Positions 36,445 to 48,210 of a stretch of DNA of 64,000 nucleotides are shown here, piece by piece. The notes beneath the pieces were generated by a model, which did not search any database, was not told the DNA's origin, and worked only from the letters and a program-made list of their open reading frames with translations. Both the position numbers and the translations under genes were made by a program. Source of the DNA: Byssovorax sp. (GTDB lineage Bacteria > Myxococcota_A > Polyangia > Polyangiales > Polyangiaceae); the NCBI GenBank assembly GCA_025362495.1, contig JANYGI010000026.1, positions 66,118 to 130,117 of the forward strand, in the 5' to 3' direction. Each line of letters begins with the position of its first letter. Positions within the stretch are counted from its first letter, which is position 1.

Positions 36445-38157
<1,713 letters not shown>

Positions 38158-38211: not shown

Positions 38212-38517
38212 TCAGGAGGCGGCGGCCTCGGAGCGCGTGACGGCGAGGATGTCGTCCTCGCGGATCAGCATGTGCTCCTCGCCATCGAGCTTGACCTCGG
38301 TGCCGCTGTACTTGCCGAAGAGGACGACGTCGCCGACCTTGACGTCGACGGGGCGAACCTTGCCGTCCTTCAGCACCTTGCCGTTGCCCACGGCGACGAC
38401 GCGACCCTCGATCGGCTTCTCCTTCGCCGAGTCGGGGATGATGATCCCTCCCTTGGTCACGCTCTCGCCCTCGAGGCGCTTGATCACGATGCGGTCCTGC
38501 AGCGGCCTGATCTTCAT
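38212..38517 (-). CDS. groES: Co-chaperonin GroES (Cpn10)
   Basis: [35 protein letters not shown]...[17 protein letters not shown]. Start verified at 38517 with SD AAGGAAGAG upstream. Confidence 0.95.
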
Positions 38518-38640
38518 GGTGCTCTTCCTTTTCCGTGTGGCTGTTGCATCGATCCGGCCGCGGGGGAGGCCCCCCTCGCGCTCCTCGCCGCCACCGCCTT
38601 GGCTCGCCCCGGCCCGCGAACGGACCGAGCAGACAGGCGG

Positions 38641-38667
38641 CTGGCACTCGACCGGCTCGATGGCTAA
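38641..38667 (-). promoter_or_regulatory. CIRCE-like inverted repeat (putative HrcA operator) upstream of groES
   Basis: On the minus strand TTAGCCATC-N9-GAGTGCCAG matches the consensus TTAGCACTC-N9-GAGTGCTAA at 14 of 18 positions. It lies about 125 nt upstream of the groES ATG. Confidence 0.45.
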
Positions 38668-38832
38668 AACCGGGCGCAAAGTAAATCACAGGGGGAACGC
38701 GTCAAGGGCGCTGAAGGAATCGCGGATTCATTTCGAGTACGCTGGCGTTCGGCCGTCCGAGGTGCTACAAGGGGTCCCGTTCAGAGCGGCCGAGTACATT
38801 CCCGCAGCGTCGGCGGTCCCGTAAAAAAGAAG

Positions 38833-41838: not shown

Positions 41839-41857
41839 AAATGCACCAGAAAAGGCT

Positions 41858-44149
41858 TCAGAGACCGAAGCGCTCGATGATCGCCGCCTGGCGCTCCAGC
41901 TCGCCCGTGAGCTCGAGCGCCTGGGCGAGGCCCGGCCACACCAGCGGTGACTCGTCGGCTCCCCCGTGGCGCGCCAGCAGATCGTGGAGCTCGCGGCGCG
42001 AGCAGCCTGCCGGGGCCGCGAGGTACGCGAGCAGCCCCGGGCGCGCCGCGTCGGTCGCCGCTTCGGTCACGACGTAGGTCGCGTCGCTCTGCACCGCGAG
42101 CACGCAGCCGCGCGCCTTGAGATCCGCGCGCAGGGCCTCCAGCCGCTCGGCCCCCGGGTGGACGCCGTCGAGCAAATAAGACTCGTATTCGCCTGGTTTT
42201 CGCGTCGTGATCGCCGGGTAGAGGTAGGTGTGATTCTCCTCGCCCGCGCCGGGCGCGGGGTTACGCGGGGCGGCCTCGAAGACGATCTCGTCGCCGTAGT
42301 GCTGCGGCGCGCGCGGCCGCGCGACCTCGAGGATCCGCGCCGTCACCGGCCCGGTGCGCAGCGCGTGGTGGACGCCGACCTCGCCGTCGGGCTCGCGCAG
42401 CTCGATCCGGCAAAGGCCCCAGGCCTCCTCGATCGGGCCCTCGCCCTGCACGTTCATCCCGATGCGGATCGCCGACGCGCGCACCGCGTCCCAGCGGCCG
42501 AGGAGCGTGGCCGTGACCATTCGATCCCAGTCGTGGTTGCCCGCGCGCGGCTCGCGCTCGACCAGCCGATCGAGGCGCGCGAGCGACTCTTCCAGGCGAC
42601 CCGCTTCGCGATCGAGGCTCGCCAGGAGCAGCTCGAGCCGCAGGTTCCCGGGCTCCAGCGCGAGCATCGCTTCGAGGTGCGGGCGAGCCTTCTCGCGCTC
42701 GTCTTCCTGCTGATAGGCCGTCGCGAGGAGGAAGTGCGCGCCCACCGCGATCTCGCCCTTCGGCTCCGCGGCGAGCGACGCCTCCGCGAGCGCGCGCGCC
42801 TCGGGGGATCGCTTCTGATCCAGCAGCGACTGGCCGAGCGTCATCAGCACGCCGTGCGCGCCGGGGAAGGCCGTGAGGTGCGCGCGCAGCCCGGCCTCGG
42901 CCTCGGCGTGGCGCGAGAGGGCGCGGCGCGCCGACGCCGCGATGATCGCCAGCCGCTCCTCGTCGGGAAAGCGCGCGCGCCCCGCCGCGAGGATCTCCAG
43001 ATCGGTCTCGGGATCGCTGGTGAGCTGAGCGAGCGCGAGCTCGGCGCTGCCCGGCGGATGGCGCGCATCCTTCACGGCCTCGCGCGCGGCCGCGATCGCC
43101 GTGTCGAGCCGCGCGAGATCGTCGTCGGCGCCGAGCGGCCGCCGCAAGCGCGGGACGAGCGCGCGGATCGACGCGGCGGCGTGCTCCGCGGTGCCGAGGC
43201 GATCGCGGGCGATGGCGAGCTCGGCGCGCCGATGCGCGATGCCGATCGCGACGCGCACCACGCCGCTGTCGGCGAGCTTGGTCTCGAGCTCGAAGAAGCG
43301 GGCCTCGAGCTTCCAGTCACCGGGCGCGGCCAGCGCGAGCGCGAGGGCGTGCATGGCCTGCGTCCAGCGCTCGTAGAGGCTCGGCGTCGGGAGGATCCGA
43401 TCGAACGGCGGCAGCGCGAGCAGCGCCTCTTCGCAGCGTCCGAGCCTCGCCAGGAGCCTGGCCGCGTCGAGCGCGTGGGTGAGCTGATCGTTGACGTCGG
43501 TCTCGGTCTCGCGCGCCCGCAGCGCCACCGCGAGCGCCTCGTCGAGGCGATCGAGCCGGAACAGCGCCTCGGTCCGCGCGGTCGCGAGGTGGCGCGTCGC
43601 GGCCCCGCGCCCGGCGCCCACCAGCGCCTCGGCCTGGGCGTCGAGGAACGCGACCGCGGCCGCCGCCCTGCCGTCGTCGATCAGGCCGTAGGCGTACTCG
43701 CTTGAAATGCAGGTGAAACAGGGCCATTTCGCGTCGATGCGCGCCAGCGTCTCGCGGGCGACGGCGATCCGATCCGGGGCGTAGCCCGGCCCGTCGAGCT
43801 CGGCGTAGCAGCCCGCGAGATCCTGGATCACGCACACGCTCTGCGGGCAGTCGCGCGCCTCGTCGCGCGACGCGAGCTCGAGCAGGCGCACCGCCTCGGG
43901 CAGGTACGCCGTGGCCTCGTGGCGGTGGAGGATGCGGCTCTGCAGGTTCCAGTGGCGAATGAAGAGCTCGAGCCAGGGGCTCTTGGCCTCGCGCGCGAGG
44001 GCCAGCGCCTCGGGCACGATGGCGTCGAGCTGCGCGTGCTCGTGGTTGACGACGTGGCCGGGGATGCGGCGGGTGAGCTCGGCTAGGCGGGGCCTCCCGC
44101 TCTCGTTCAGCTCGCGTTGCAGATCGTGAACCCAGCGCCAGATGTCCAT
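41858..44149 (-). CDS. Large alpha-helical (TPR-like) hypothetical protein, co-operonic with an Hsp90-like ATPase
   Basis: 763 aa, Ala/Leu/Arg-rich helical repeats, two Cys pairs near the N-terminus (CPQSVC and CFTC). No motif I can assign. Its start lies 4 nt after the stop of the upstream Hsp90-like gene. Confidence 0.55.
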   Translation of the reverse strand: MDIWRWVHDLQRELNESGRPRLAELTRRIPGHVVNHEHAQLDAIVPEALALAREAKSPWLELFIRHWNLQSRILHRHEATAYLPEAVRLLELASRDEARDCPQSVCVIQDLAGCYAELDGPGYAPDRIAVARETLARIDAKWPCFTCISSEYAYGLIDDGRAAAAVAFLDAQAEALVGAGRGAATRHLATARTEALFRLDRLDEALAVALRARETETDVNDQLTHALDAARLLARLGRCEEALLALPPFDRILPTPSLYERWTQAMHALALALAAPGDWKLEARFFELETKLADSGVVRVAIGIAHRRAELAIARDRLGTAEHAAASIRALVPRLRRPLGADDDLARLDTAIAAAREAVKDARHPPGSAELALAQLTSDPETDLEILAAGRARFPDEERLAIIAASARRALSRHAEAEAGLRAHLTAFPGAHGVLMTLGQSLLDQKRSPEARALAEASLAAEPKGEIAVGAHFLLATAYQQEDEREKARPHLEAMLALEPGNLRLELLLASLDREAGRLEESLARLDRLVEREPRAGNHDWDRMVTATLLGRWDAVRASAIRIGMNVQGEGPIEEAWGLCRIELREPDGEVGVHHALRTGPVTARILEVARPRAPQHYGDEIVFEAAPRNPAPGAGEENHTYLYPAITTRKPGEYESYLLDGVHPGAERLEALRADLKARGCVLAVQSDATYVVTEAATDAARPGLLAYLAAPAGCSRRELHDLLARHGGADESPLVWPGLAQALELTGELERQAAIIERFGL

Positions 44150-44153
44150 GATT

Positions 44154-46025
44154 TCAAGCCGATTTCAGGAGCGCGAGCAGCGCGTCCGAGAGGGCCGCGA
44201 GGTGATCTCCGACCTCGCCCGAGGCGCCGTCGTCGCGCCCGGCCATCAGCCCGGCGACGCCGCGCAGGAGCCGCGCGGCCTGCTCGGCGCGCGCCTCCTC
44301 GGCGGGCCCGCTCGCCGCGAGGATCCGCGCGATCACCGGCGTGTCGAGGTTGACGTAGAGCCGCGCCTCGACGCCCGCGTCGATGGTCTTCGTGAAGAGG
44401 CGCGCCATGCCGAGGACCGCCGTCGAGACCTTCTTGTCGGCCTCGTCGCGCTCGAGGATCTCCTTCAGCGCCACGTCGCGATCGGGCACCAGGACCAGCG
44501 GGAGCGTGTCGGGAGCGAAGCGCGCGGGGACGACCTCCTGCCGCTCGCCATGGAAAAGCGCGCGGAGCCGCGCGGCGTGCGCGTCCGACACCTCCGCGCG
44601 CGGGAACAGCGACTGGTTGCCCTGCTTGGTGCCGAGCTGGACGACGGCGCCGCCGACGCGCTGCGCGTAGGCCTGGCAGAAGGGCAGGGCCGCGTAGCGC
44701 ACGCCGGTCACCACCGGGACGCGGAGCGCGCGGAAGAGGATCTCCTCGTAGCCGCCCTGTTCGCCCATGGAAACGTGGATCTTCCCGCCGCTCTTCTTGC
44801 GCACCGCGGGCACGGTGAGACCGCCCTCGCTCGTCGGCACCTTGAGGTCGGGCGCCAGCAGATCGAAGAGCCGCGGATCGCAGATCGCCGCGCCGAGCAG
44901 GGCCTCGTTGTGGCGCAGCAAGACGCGGCGCCACGTGGCCGGCTCGTGCTCGGCGAGGTGCGCGAGCCCGCTGATCAGCGCCCCCTGGATCTGCCCGGCG
45001 AGGTGGTGGTACGCGGCGTCGCGCTGCACGTCCTCGCGGCTCGCCGTCGGCGTGAGCGCGTCGGCCTCGATCACGCCGCCGACGAAGCCGGCCCACGGCG
45101 GCAGCAGATCGCGCTCGTCGGGGCTGACGAGCATGCCGCGCACGAAGACCGAGATGTTGCGGTTGTCCGAGGTGCCGTAGGTCGCGCCGTCCTGCACCCA
45201 GAGCAGGCCGCGCGGGCCGCCGCCGACGTCGTTGGCGGACGCGGTCGGGTCGGCCTCGGGCTTGACGTCGAAGGTGCAGAGCGGCTCGAACCGCGACTCG
45301 AAGCGGCGCGCGAAATCGAGGCTCCGGCGGCGGTGGAGCAGGGGCGAGTCGCCCTCGTCGCGCCAGGGCGGGGCGGGGCGATTCACGGCGTCGCTCGTCG
45401 CGCTCCCGAGGTGGATCGGGAACGTGAGCATGCAGGCGTAGCGCTCGAGCAGGCGAGGCACGAGATCCACGCTCGCGAGCAGCGCGAACGCCTCGCCGAG
45501 GTGGAGCACGACGCGCGTGCCGACGAGCCCCGCCGGCGCCGGGCCGAGCTGGTAGCGCTCGCCGCCGCGGCTCTGAAAATGCCACCCGAGCGTGGGCTCC
45601 TGGTACGAAGTGGTGAACAGGTCGACGCGCTCGCTCACCACGAACGCCGAGAGAAAGCCGAGGCCGAACGCGCCGATCAGCGCCTCTCCGCCGCGCCCTT
45701 CGGCCCGCAATTTCCCGGTGTATCCCGCGCCGACGGTGGCCAGGTACTTCACGATCTCGTCGTGGGTGAGCCCGGCGCCCGTGTCGGTGATCGTCAGCGT
45801 GCGCTTCACCGGATCGGGCGTGACCACGATCATCGGCTCGAACGGCGACGGGTCCTCGAGCTGCCGGCGCACGCACGAGTCGTGCGCGTTCTGCACCAGC
45901 TCCCGCAGCGCGACGTGGGGCGTGGAATAGAGGTTGTTCCCGAGCACCCGCATCAGACCGGCGAGGTCGACCTGGGTGCGCAGCAGCTCGACCGGCTCGC
46001 TCATGCGAGCGGGATCAGAGCGCAC
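44154..46025 (-). CDS. Divergent Hsp90/HtpG-family ATPase (GHKL N-domain plus Hsp90 middle domain)
   Basis: [27 protein letters not shown] aligns with HtpG [40 protein letters not shown] aligns with [26 protein letters not shown] with LIGQFGVGFYSAF, and the middle-domain catalytic-Arg region VFVRGMLVS...[10 protein letters not shown] with VFIMDD...NVSREILQDS. An alternative start exists at 46004. Confidence 0.7.
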   Translation of the reverse strand: [623 protein letters not shown]

Positions 46026-46109: not shown

Positions 46110-46523
46110 TCAGCGGAACTTCGAGTGGCACTCCTTGCACGTGGCCTTCATGTCGCCGAGGGCCGCGCTCGCGCCCGCCGAGTCCTTCGCGGTCGCGGCG
46201 ACGCCGAGGGCCTTGGCCTTGTCGTTGAGCTTCGTGGCCAGCGCGTCGAAATCGGGACCCTTCGTGAAGTCCTTCGTTTTCAGGCTCGTCGCCTGGATGC
46301 GCTCGGAAACGAGGGTGAACGCCGCCCAGTCCGCGTCGACGTAGCTCGTCGCGCCGATCTTCTTCCACTGCGGATCGGCCACGGTCGCCTGGTTGTCCAT
46401 CACGATCGTCAGGCTGGTGAGCTTGGGGATGTCGTTGACGGGCGTGTTGGTGATCGGCGCTCCGCAGTGGACGGCGGCGAGAGCGAGCGTGGCGGCGAGG
46501 ATCGTGGTCGGGGCGAGGCGCAT
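46110..46523 (-). CDS. Cytochrome c' (class II c-type cytochrome), periplasmic
   Basis: Signal peptide MRLAPTTILAATLALAAVHC, a roughly 110-aa helical body, and a single C-terminal haem site CKECH eight residues from the end. Confidence 0.6.
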   Translation of the reverse strand: MRLAPTTILAATLALAAVHCGAPITNTPVNDIPKLTSLTIVMDNQATVADPQWKKIGATSYVDADWAAFTLVSERIQATSLKTKDFTKGPDFDALATKLNDKAKALGVAATAKDSAGASAALGDMKATCKECHSKFR

Positions 46524-46614
46524 GAGGGATTTCCTGAGGAAGCGGGCGGCGATTATCCACGCCGATGCTCGGAGGCGGTCCAGAAATCGATCGCCTGGGT
46601 TATCCTGCGCCGCC

Positions 46615-48210
46615 ATGCGGGTCTGGACTGATGGAACGATTCATCTCGTCTCCGGCGAGGAAGGAATCGAAGTGCACCGGCCGAACACGGCAGCGGTGCT
46701 TCACGCGCTCGGGAAACCCCAGAAGCGCGCTCACGCGCCGCGCGACGTGCTCGCGGTCGTGACGAGCGAGCCGCTCCGCGCCTGGGTCGGCAGCGGATCG
46801 GACGTGAAGCTCGTGACGATCGACGAGGGCGCGAACGTCGACAAGACGATCGCGGCCAACGTCCTCGACGCGATCGGGCTCGGCGACGGCCGCGTGCTCG
46901 CGTGCGTGGTGCTCCCCGGCGAGCGTAGCCCGCGCCTCGTCGTCGTCGACGGCGTGTCCCCCGATTTCGCCGGCGCGACCGACCTGTCGATCCCGACAGC
47001 GAAGCGGATCACCTGGCCCGGCGGCATCTGGGACAAAGAGGTCGCCTGGCCCGAAGACGACGTGGAAGAGGGCGACGAGCCCCTCGCGCTCGACGCGCTG
47101 GCCCTCGGCTACCCCCAGACCGACGGCCGCTTTCTCTACGACGAGGTCCTGATCTCGGCCAACGAGCACGGCATCACGGTGACGGGCGTGTACGTCGGCA
47201 TCGTCGCCGCGCTGCCGCCCGACGCGAGCAAGATCGACTTCGCCTTCCGCGTGCCGACGCAGGCGGGCGAGACCGAGATCTTCGCGGCGCGCACCGGCAC
47301 GGGCGGCGTGGTCGTCGTCCACGCCATCGAGGGTCGGAGCTCGGCGGTGACGCACCTCGCGAGCGACGGCGCCGTCCTCGGGAGCCGCCACAAGATCGGG
47401 CGCGATCTCGCGATGGGAATGGGCCCGCCCGTCGTGCAGGGCGAGCGCGTCCTCGTCTTCGAGGCCGGCGCAAAAGAAGCCGATCGTCTCCACGAGCTGA
47501 AGCTTCCCGCGCTCGAGGTCGCGAAATCGGCCGAGCTCGGCGATCACCCGACGGGGCGCCTCTCGGTGGCCGTCGCGCCGACGGGTGATCCGTTCGTCCT
47601 CGGCCTCGGCGGCAAGGCGCGGCTCGTGAAGCGCGGCGCGCGCGGCCGGCTCGACACCGAGGCGCTGGTGCGTCCGGTGCCCAAGGTCGTCGCGCTGCCG
47701 CGAGCGATCGTGCAGGCGCCGTCGCTGCGCGTGCAAGGCCCGCCGGCGCTGGCGCTGTCGAAGGGGGATCAGCGCCCGGCGCCCTGGATGATGATGGCCG
47801 GCGAGGCCTTCGTGATCGAGATCCCGTTCACCAACCAGGGCGGCGCCAGCCGCGGGATCGCGATCGAGATCTCGGGCCCCGCGCTCCAGACCGGCCTCGT
47901 GCGCACGGCGCGGGCCCGCGTCGGCGACGTCGAGACGATGCTCGAGAGCAAGCCTGGCGCGACGTCGGTGCGCGGCGAGCTCGGCGACGTGGCGATGGAG
48001 GCCGGCTTCACGCCGATCGGCGGCGACAAGAAGGGCGCGCTGCCGCCCCCCGCGGCGCCCTCGCTCTACCTGCGGATCGAGGTCTTCGGCGTCACGCCGG
48101 GCAACGGCGTGCTCACCGTCCGCATCACGCCGCTCAGGGCCCCGCCGGGCCGCGGCTCGGTGCTGCAAGGCAAGAGCGTCACCGTCAGCGCGACCATCCC
48201 CGAGCTCTGA
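46615..48210 (+). CDS. Hypothetical protein (531 aa)
   Basis: Start MRVWTDGTIHLV verified at 46615. Good composition with no signal peptide. Divergently transcribed from the cytochrome c' gene. No recognised domain. Confidence 0.45.
   Translation: MRVWTDGTIHLVSGEEGIEVHRPNTAAVLHALGKPQKRAHAPRDVLAVVTSEPLRAWVGSGSDVKLVTIDEGANVDKTIAANVLDAIGLGDGRVLACVVLPGERSPRLVVVDGVSPDFAGATDLSIPTAKRITWPGGIWDKEVAWPEDDVEEGDEPLALDALALGYPQTDGRFLYDEVLISANEHGITVTGVYVGIVAALPPDASKIDFAFRVPTQAGETEIFAARTGTGGVVVVHAIEGRSSAVTHLASDGAVLGSRHKIGRDLAMGMGPPVVQGERVLVFEAGAKEADRLHELKLPALEVAKSAELGDHPTGRLSVAVAPTGDPFVLGLGGKARLVKRGARGRLDTEALVRPVPKVVALPRAIVQAPSLRVQGPPALALSKGDQRPAPWMMMAGEAFVIEIPFTNQGGASRGIAIEISGPALQTGLVRTARARVGDVETMLESKPGATSVRGELGDVAMEAGFTPIGGDKKGALPPPAAPSLYLRIEVFGVTPGNGVLTVRITPLRAPPGRGSVLQGKSVTVSATIPEL

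Follow-up and report, generated by a model that had tools for sequence, protein, structure and literature searches.

The stretch analysed here, called the window throughout, is a 64,000-nucleotide segment of a Byssovorax sp. assembly (GCA_025362495.1, contig JANYGI010000026.1, positions 66,118 to 130,117; Myxococcota_A, Polyangiaceae) with a guanine-plus-cytosine (GC) content of 71%. On its minus strand lie two adjacent genes, the first encoding an Hsp90-like ATPase (44154..46025) and the second a 763-amino-acid partner protein that starts with ATG (41858..44149), and this pairing recurs in at least seven bacterial phyla. The closest protein matches of the pair come from Byssovorax and Polyangiales metagenome-assembled genomes (MAGs). 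A preliminary description of this DNA had reported both open reading frames (ORFs) and a 4-nt gap between them, and the sequence confirms these: the junction reads GCT TGA aatc ATG GAC, with a spacer of exactly 4 nt (44150..44153) between the ATPase TGA and the partner ATG, suggesting coupled expression. Both ORFs are genuine genes, since their GC contents by codon position (GC1/GC2/GC3 of 0.75/0.49/0.94 and 0.79/0.50/0.92) follow the pattern typical of real genes in a genome of 71% GC. The ATPase has 623 amino acids if read from the GTG at 46025. Its homologues are 600–618 amino acids long with an N-terminus of the form MSxxxEL, and translation therefore probably starts at the ATG at 46004, giving a protein of 616 amino acids; residue numbers below count from this ATG.

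The ATPase divides into an N-terminal part, comprising the GHKL/Bergerat N-domain and the early middle domain up to the catalytic-Arg loop (residues 11–347, 44964..45974), and a family-specific C-terminal half (residues 348–616, 44157..44963), all on the minus strand. Two Pfam models matched above their cutoffs: HSP90 (27.6 bits, cutoff 24.4), over residues 283–342 only, and HATPase_c_3 (27.1 bits, cutoff 25). The best-scoring curated model was NCBIfam PRK14083 (NF010683, 'HSP90 family protein'), which gave 236.3 bits against a cutoff of 455, with residues 17–595 aligned to positions 8–572 of the 604 in the model. The NCBIfam HtpG model (NF003555 / PRK05218) gave 166.8 bits against a cutoff of 371, over residues 17–369 only. 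Relatives from E. coli, P. aeruginosa, Xanthomonas, Holophaga and Kitasatospora scored 266–293 bits with PRK14083 and 178–195 bits with HtpG, again all below the cutoffs. Because the ATPase falls under both NCBIfam cutoffs, as do these five relatives, the earlier view of it as strongly diverged from canonical HtpG is correct, and the protein does not belong with the ordinary HtpG orthologues.

A profile of 16 family members, searched against the PDB, retrieved TRAP1, HtpG, Grp94 and Hsp90 chains at E ~1e-49 (HtpG and TRAP1 at ~1e-48 to 1e-49), with only residues 11–350 aligned. The Bergerat-fold motifs ExxxNAxD, DxGxG and the GxxGxG lid are all present, and in the profile alignment the segment TASRED lines up with NLSRE of TRAP1. 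Residues E35, N39, D42, D74, G76, G78, G111, G114, G116 and S322-R323-E324 are invariant in 71 sequences from many phyla; they include the catalytic Glu (E35), the Mg-binding Asn (N39) and, in the S-R-E catalytic loop, R323. Retention of the Hsp90 ATP-binding and catalytic-Arg motifs had been noted from the window alone; all four motifs quoted at the time occur in the 623-aa translation, and the residues concerned are invariant in the family. A middle-domain catalytic Arg in an SRE loop is a universal marker of Hsp90 (PMC1525184, Table 4). On these N-domain and catalytic-loop features the protein is assigned to the Hsp90 superfamily and predicted to be ATPase-competent.

The C-terminal half gave a different picture. 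With E <= 10 as the threshold, neither the PDB, searched with a profile of residues 340–616, nor Pfam returned a match for this half. These ~270 residues are well conserved inside the family and align only to PRK14083; the very end of the protein (...ALLALLKSA) is poorly conserved. By these searches the C-terminal half is not recognisable as an Hsp90 middle or C-terminal domain. Judged by the model scores, these Hsp90-like ATPases form one coherent clade that stands apart from both curated models of bacterial Hsp90, and the annotated E. coli and P. aeruginosa members carry merely the name 'ATP-binding protein' from the NCBI annotation pipeline PGAP. Two divergent bacterial HtpG groups, B and C, were described and then set aside (Chen et al. 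2006, PMC1525184; Press et al. 2013, PMC3708813), and the PRK14083 proteins are probably one of them.

The partner matched only tetratricopeptide repeat (TPR) models in Pfam (TPR_19, TPR_2 and TPR_14), at residues ~420–535, with TPR_19 at 27.8 bits (cutoff 25). An AlphaFold2 model computed from a 53-sequence alignment had a predicted local distance difference test (pLDDT) score of 93.5. In the model, ~30 helices arranged in hairpins are predicted to form a solenoid at residues 1–562, followed by a beta-rich domain at residues 578–763. Foldseek searches with the full-length model returned TPR scaffolds with a probability of 1.00, all of them generic (APC/C, OGT, IFT-A, Ski3); lower-ranked matches were generic ferredoxin-like folds such as CutA1 and uL10. 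Pfam searches at E <= 10 with the N- and C-terminal parts returned nothing meaningful. Neither Pfam nor the structure-model fold searches revealed a catalytic, enzyme or toxin fold, and the partner is thus not a known enzyme. The preliminary description of a TPR-like or all-helical protein was right about the TPR solenoid at residues 1–562; the protein is only about three-quarters helical, residues 578–763 being beta-rich.

Conservation along the partner is uneven. Column identity is 0.66–0.70 in the first 160 residues, the best-conserved helical segment (43670..44149), 0.40–0.48 in the variable TPR-like helical repeats that follow (residues 161–562, 42464..43669, delimited by the Pfam TPR matches and the model) and ~0.5 in the C-terminal alpha+beta domain (residues 578–763, 41861..42418), an independent module of unclassified fold. 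In 71 sequences from at least seven phyla, residues W6, E47, W59, H66, W67, R72, Q109, D110, D119, G120, R127 and E151 are at least 95% conserved, as are two Cys motifs, C101-P-Q-x-x-C106 and C144-x-x-C147. These two Cys pairs (CX4C and CX2C; 43709..43849) are a putative metal-binding or redox site, and the strong conservation of residues 1–160 makes this segment a candidate docking surface for the ATPase. The Kitasatospora partner homologue aligns mainly over these same residues.

The partner family is, by its sequences, large and uniform in architecture. A word-indexed search yielded 77 homologues, and a profile search of 1.84 billion representatives yielded 2,996 clusters (50% identity) at E <= 1e-30, of which the top 150 are all collinear and 716–830 aa long. 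Some loci depart from the standard layout: Bradymonadia carry two full-length partner paralogues in tandem (L010:11857-16297), Parabeggiatoa has an additional 352-aa copy of the N-terminal part only (L006:4593-8017), and at one Polyangiaceae locus the C-terminal alpha+beta domain forms its own ORF (L056:11832-14233).

To survey the pairing we scanned one genome per species and found at least 508 loci with an ATPase relative, of which the best 80 were fetched. Two loci from encoding-contig look-ups and one from E. coli SE15, whose pair has the accessions WP_000105776 and WP_000382017, brought the total to 83. The partner lay on the same strand within the fetched flanks at 75 of the 83, upstream instead of downstream in four of these, and was found only at reduced coverage at a further two. 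Where the partner is downstream the gap is mostly −4 to +50 nt, with frequent 4-nt start/stop overlaps; a few loci carry an inserted gene or a duplicated partner. The pair occurs in Myxococcota, Bradymonadia, Xanthomonas, Stenotrophomonas, Lysobacter, Dyella, Luteibacter, Pseudomonas, Escherichia, Salmonella, Parabeggiatoa, Burkholderiales, Methylophilaceae, Holophaga and other Acidobacteriota, Chloroflexi and Fibrobacterota, as well as in Kitasatospora (Actinomycetota), where the genes overlap by 4 nt and the ATPase is 49% identical to that of the window. The two proteins diverge in parallel, their identities to the window copies being correlated with r = 0.94 over 70 pairs. The co-conservation of the two genes, one of the checks proposed in the preliminary description, is well borne out, and none of the outcomes named there as refuting turned up. 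The window copy is an ordinary family member, and it is the family, not the locus, that constitutes the finding.

All-vs-all clustering of the ORFs in the 83 loci and the window revealed no third conserved gene, other clusters being antisense shadow ORFs or clade-specific synteny. Fusion of the two genes in a Rosetta-stone arrangement was considered and rejected: over-long ORFs in high-GC loci reflect upstream read-through, and the partner always starts at query residue 1. In one Byssovorax MAG (JAXLYT01) the pair is split over contigs and both genes are kept (partner at L089:6001-8298, ATPase at L004:10001-11821). The split partner retains the synteny of the window, with genes for an aldehyde dehydrogenase, a PP2C phosphatase, a cyclic-nucleotide-binding protein and Cpn10; the split ATPase gene is followed by a major facilitator superfamily transporter gene. 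On the partner contig, beside the cyclic-nucleotide-binding regulator, we also observed a gene of the metallo-beta-lactamase-fold or class II phosphodiesterase type with a weak match to the anti-Pycsar protein Apyc1 (L089:10789-12215), whose product is probably a cyclic-nucleotide phosphodiesterase.

These data bear directly on the simplest alternative, that the adjacency has no functional meaning, the ATPase being just another general chaperone like HtpG, with an unrelated TPR gene beside it. Loci without the partner, and the MAG with the genes on separate contigs, would fit such an account. Set against them, 75 of 83 loci keep the adjacency over at least seven phyla while all other neighbours change, the 4-nt start/stop overlap is frequent, the two proteins co-diverge, and both genes are kept even where they are split. 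The conservation data already effectively refute a meaningless adjacency, to which we give almost no weight.

A related arrangement was seen in Nannocystaceae (L034:11877-15011, L038:6404-9586 and L002:5647-8004). Here family Hsp90-like genes are followed, after gaps of ~14–16 nt, by genes encoding large Ser/Thr kinase-TPR proteins, and in Nannocystis the kinase-TPR gene instead precedes the Hsp90-like gene with a 4-nt overlap. The usual partner is lacking at L034 and L038. Such loci would be expected if the ATPase acts on large TPR proteins, though myxobacteria are rich in Ser/Thr-kinase-TPR proteins and the adjacency is for that reason only suggestive. The arrangement also recalls the relationship between eukaryotic Hsp90 and its kinase clients.

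We then considered whether the pair is a resident operon or a mobile cassette. In annotated contigs its neighbours are housekeeping genes: citrate synthase; ABC permeases and purA; iscSUA-hscBA-fdx; groESL. In the window, a cytochrome c' gene lies upstream on the same strand, and the surroundings include a divergent aldehyde dehydrogenase gene, a PP2C phosphatase gene, groES-groEL, a Crp-type regulator gene and a DEAD-box helicase gene. The groES (38212-38679) and groEL (36445-38142) genes form a minus-strand operon ~3.2 kb from the pair, with the aldehyde dehydrogenase and PP2C genes in between; groES is listed as a 155-aa ORF whose Cpn10 domain spans residues 56–147 only, and the true start is probably further downstream. 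On the opposite strand, beside the cytochrome c' gene, a 605-aa ORF with good coding statistics (46393-48210, plus strand) had no Pfam match at E <= 0.001. A terminator-like hairpin with a T-run overlies the partner stop codon (41855..41871, minus strand). The consensus scan that located it found four such sites in the region against 1.7 expected, which is weak evidence, and the hairpin is a probable end of the operon. A scan of the window region for the sigma-70 consensus, which covers myxobacterial promoters poorly, gave no site. One metagenomic contig carries iscS-iscU-iscA-hscB-hscA-fdx followed on the same strand by the pair, with a partner variant of 636 aa (L085:4770-13707). Given this adjacency and the partner Cys pairs, the module could conceivably be linked to metal or Fe-S handling, though the gene order is not kept at other loci.

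Plasmids and phages almost entirely lack the pair. Partner matches were found in three of 72,556 plasmid records (PLSDB), one of them an 11.85-Mb Nonomuraea record that is clearly chromosomal and another an 847-kb record from P. aeruginosa, classed as a conjugative plasmid, with core genes in the fetched stretch. The single match in the phage collection was a mis-filed Salmonella contig. Most of these plasmid and phage records are chromosomal DNA placed in the wrong collection. In E. coli, the pair is present in 255 of 5,426 complete genomes (4.7%), where it is chromosomal, single-copy and placed between the core genes fdhD and yiiG; it is likewise near fdhD in Salmonella Infantis. Between E. 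coli and Salmonella the nucleotide identity of the pair is 76.8%, compared with 77.8% for the flanking fdhD, and its GC content equals that of the host. Since the pair diverges like fdhD and has host-level GC, ancestral presence with repeated loss accounts for its distribution better than recent transfer, and on these comparisons it appears to be vertically inherited in Escherichia and Salmonella. Two allele classes exist in E. coli, with 147 genomes carrying a copy at least 99% identical to that of SE15 (L083:11965-16108) and 108 a copy at ~92%. This ~92% allele divergence is far above typical E. coli core divergence, and the intergenic region upstream of the pair in SE15 is very AT-rich. The pair is also syntenic across Xanthomonas and Stenotrophomonas.

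These distributions matter for a second alternative, an anti-phage or other conflict system in which the GHKL ATPase, paired with the TPR sensor, would recognise a protein of an invader and set off abortive infection. In its favour, the module is compact, with only two genes, and occurs patchily among phyla; in E. coli it is an accessory element lying between core genes and exists as two divergent allele classes. TPR arrays are common sensors in STAND/Avs-type immunity, as is generally known. Searches of PADLOC-DB v2 gave no match for the partner and no full-length match for the ATPase, only its N-terminal GHKL domain matching TmtA and REase_II at 14–29 bits; these weak matches, to the Tiamat protein TmtA and a type II restriction enzyme, are a further point in favour of defence. 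Neither protein, however, showed the fold of a nuclease, protease, NADase, pore or other effector, and the neighbours are housekeeping genes, not defence islands. The near absence from plasmids and phages, the Escherichia/Salmonella divergence at the level of a flanking core gene with host GC, the apparently core status in P. aeruginosa and the synteny in Xanthomonas and Stenotrophomonas all run counter to a conflict role, as does the very uniform length and collinearity of the 150 top partner representatives, unlike what diversifying sensors display. We therefore rejected defence as the leading model, given the restriction of the PADLOC matches to a weakly scoring N-domain, the near absence from plasmids and phages and the housekeeping neighbourhoods, and consider it improbable. 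The preliminary description had left open a two-component chaperone or a conflict system: the pairing itself is strongly conserved, and the conflict option is disfavoured.

The P. aeruginosa counterpart lies in the order mrp/sha antiporter genes, a LysR gene, the pair, braG/livG-M-H-J and flgB, which by this gene order and the PAO1 numbering we take to be PA1068-PA1069. Of these, PA1068 carries the label 'probable heat shock protein, hsp90 family', and PA1069 (UniProt Q9I4Q5) is annotated as hypothetical. The partner here has 764 aa and is ~35% identical to that of the window, and the pair appears to be core in this species. In both E. coli and P. aeruginosa it coexists with a canonical htpG. 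A literature search on both proteins found no functional study and only omics lists. PA1069 'appears operonic' with an Hsp90 gene, and its protein was detected and associated with Ca2+ and biofilm (PMC4053335); it was activated 3.2-fold by AmrZ (PMC3946381), ~4-fold down at elevated temperature (PMC4957987), and Q9I4Q5 was listed as an uncharacterised protein in a co-immunoprecipitation (PMC13411936). No sigma-32-like promoter was found upstream of the pair in E. coli, Salmonella or P. aeruginosa. Taking the P. aeruginosa temperature data and the promoter result together, the ATPase does not appear to be heat-inducible.

This expression pattern, not heat-induced and responsive to Ca2+ and biofilm conditions, would also suit an ATP-gated switch or sensor instead of a chaperone. 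Under this proposal the ATPase would act as a GHKL clamp like MORC or MutL, the TPR protein as its sensing or output subunit, and the Cys pairs as a redox or metal sensor following the logic of the Zn-Cys4 switch of Hsp33. Both Cys pairs and H66 are unchanged from phylum to phylum, the ATPase N-domain weakly matches sacsin, Tiamat TmtA and BbrUII-type GHKL modules, and occasional neighbours include isc/hsc genes, cytochrome c' and fdhD. Yet these metal- or Fe-S-related neighbours are not conserved, and neither protein has a recognisable output domain (DNA-binding, kinase, cyclase or nuclease). The ATPase is far nearer to Hsp90 than to MORC or MutL, with the SRE loop and the region up to residue 350 aligning to TRAP1 and HtpG at E 1e-49. 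In the secondary-structure layout of the partner model, moreover, the Cys pairs may sit far apart on a long helix, which would leave a single Cys4 site unproven. We regard a switch as unlikely, while it retains more plausibility than a role in conflict.

Our preferred reading is that the pair comprises a dedicated Hsp90-type remodelling ATPase and its cognate TPR adaptor or obligate solenoid client, to which we assign a probability of roughly 0.5. The 616-aa protein would be an ATP-hydrolysing Hsp90 paralogue built from a GHKL N-domain, a catalytic-Arg loop and a family-specific C-terminal half. The invariant N-terminal module of the partner would dock on this ATPase, and its variable repeats and C-terminal alpha+beta domain would bind the substrate being remodelled or assembled, making the partner a built-in adaptor or co-chaperone. 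Alternatively, the partner may itself be the obligate client, with the ATPase controlling how this large solenoid folds or which conformation it adopts. In either role, the module would be an old, mostly vertically inherited chromosomal operon for cellular physiology, such as stress or biofilm-type conditions, and would serve neither heat shock nor phage defence. The gene pairing, the co-divergence, the conserved ATPase residues, the domain anatomy, the distribution and the genomic contexts are observations; the physical interaction of the two proteins, the ATPase and chaperone activities, the adaptor or client role and the physiological function are inferences.

Several observations weigh against this reading. 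Six of the 83 loci had no partner in the fetched flanks by tblastn and a partner hidden Markov model (HMM). In Nonomuraea gerenzanensis a 758-aa partner homologue (L088:5995-8271) lies beside miaA with no Hsp90-like gene within 6 kb, which shows that in Actinomycetota partner homologues can occur unlinked to the ATPase. Most E. coli dispense with the pair, which only 4.7% of the complete genomes carry. The C-terminal half of the ATPase has no detectable similarity to Hsp90 middle or C-terminal domains, and the typical Hsp90 dimerisation and client-binding surfaces are therefore only putative in this protein. It also ends in LLKSA, with no MEEVD-type C-terminal peptide, and the eukaryotic mode of TPR docking is therefore inapplicable. 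Finally, the adaptor and client roles of the partner are not separable on present data.

A bolder form of the proposal, which we put forward tentatively and hold to be distinctly less probable, is that the family represents the first Hsp90-type chaperone of bacteria to have an obligate partner evolving with it: an Hsp90-plus-TPR-adaptor machine, independent of the eukaryotic co-chaperone system or ancestral to it in logic. In such a machine the Cys-bearing N-module would clamp the ATPase, and the TPR superhelix and C-terminal domain would select a client class, for example large repeat proteins or kinases; kinase clients are hinted at by the kinase-TPR neighbours in Nannocystaceae. Bacterial Hsp90 is held to act without co-chaperones (PMC7926864), and the divergent hsp90B/C paralogues were left out of comparative work (PMC3708813). 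The family described here ties an Hsp90 paralogue to one specific large TPR protein, in Myxococcota, Gamma- and Betaproteobacteria, Acidobacteriota, Actinomycetota and further phyla. The pair is not peculiar to this genome and belongs to a large, old family that sits unannotated in model organisms as an 'ATP-binding protein' and a 'hypothetical protein'. If the two proteins form a complex, P. aeruginosa and ~5% of E. coli would offer a simple, genetically tractable Hsp90-partner system for studying how a partner steers the Hsp90 ATPase cycle, and two widespread 'hypothetical' families would gain a function. The C-terminal half of the ATPase, the N-module of the partner and its C-domain would also define new domain families, because none of them matches Pfam or the PDB.

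Among known systems, HtpG ('Hsp90A' of Chen et al. 2006, PMC1525184) resembles the ATPase in the catalytic Glu, Mg-binding Asn, adenine-binding Asp and Gly-rich boxes of its GHKL N-domain, in the S-R-E loop of its middle domain and in its length of ~610 aa. It differs in that the ATPase reaches only 167 of the 371 bits required by the HtpG model, no solved Hsp90 can be aligned with the C-terminal 270 aa, the GQFG of HtpG reads GAFG in the family, and there is no sign of heat inducibility. PRK14083 is alignable over nearly the full length, although the score of 236 bits stays well under the cutoff of 455. Defence and restriction GHKL ATPases (Tiamat TmtA, BbrUII/HgiDII, MORC/paraMORC, sacsin SRR) have the Bergerat-fold N-domain in common with the ATPase, with weak matches to TmtA (28.6 bits), BbrUII (29 bits) and the sacsin N-domain (27 bits) over residues ~18–150 only. 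This likeness ends at the ATP-binding domain, and the pair has neither a nuclease or other effector nor a defence-island context. Eukaryotic Hsp90 with its TPR co-chaperones (Hop/Sti1, PP5, CHIP, FKBP51/52, Tom70, Tah1) likewise combines an Hsp90-type ATPase with a TPR protein. The MEEVD-like acidic tail of eukaryotic Hsp90 is not present in the ATPase, Pfam detected no homology of the partner to any co-chaperone family, and in place of the eukaryotic 3-TPR carboxylate clamp the partner has a superhelix of ~560 residues with a Cys-bearing N-module and an alpha+beta C-domain. What the pair may have in common with the eukaryotic systems is thus their logic, at most convergent, in which an adaptor brings clients to an Hsp90-type ATPase or sets its cycle.

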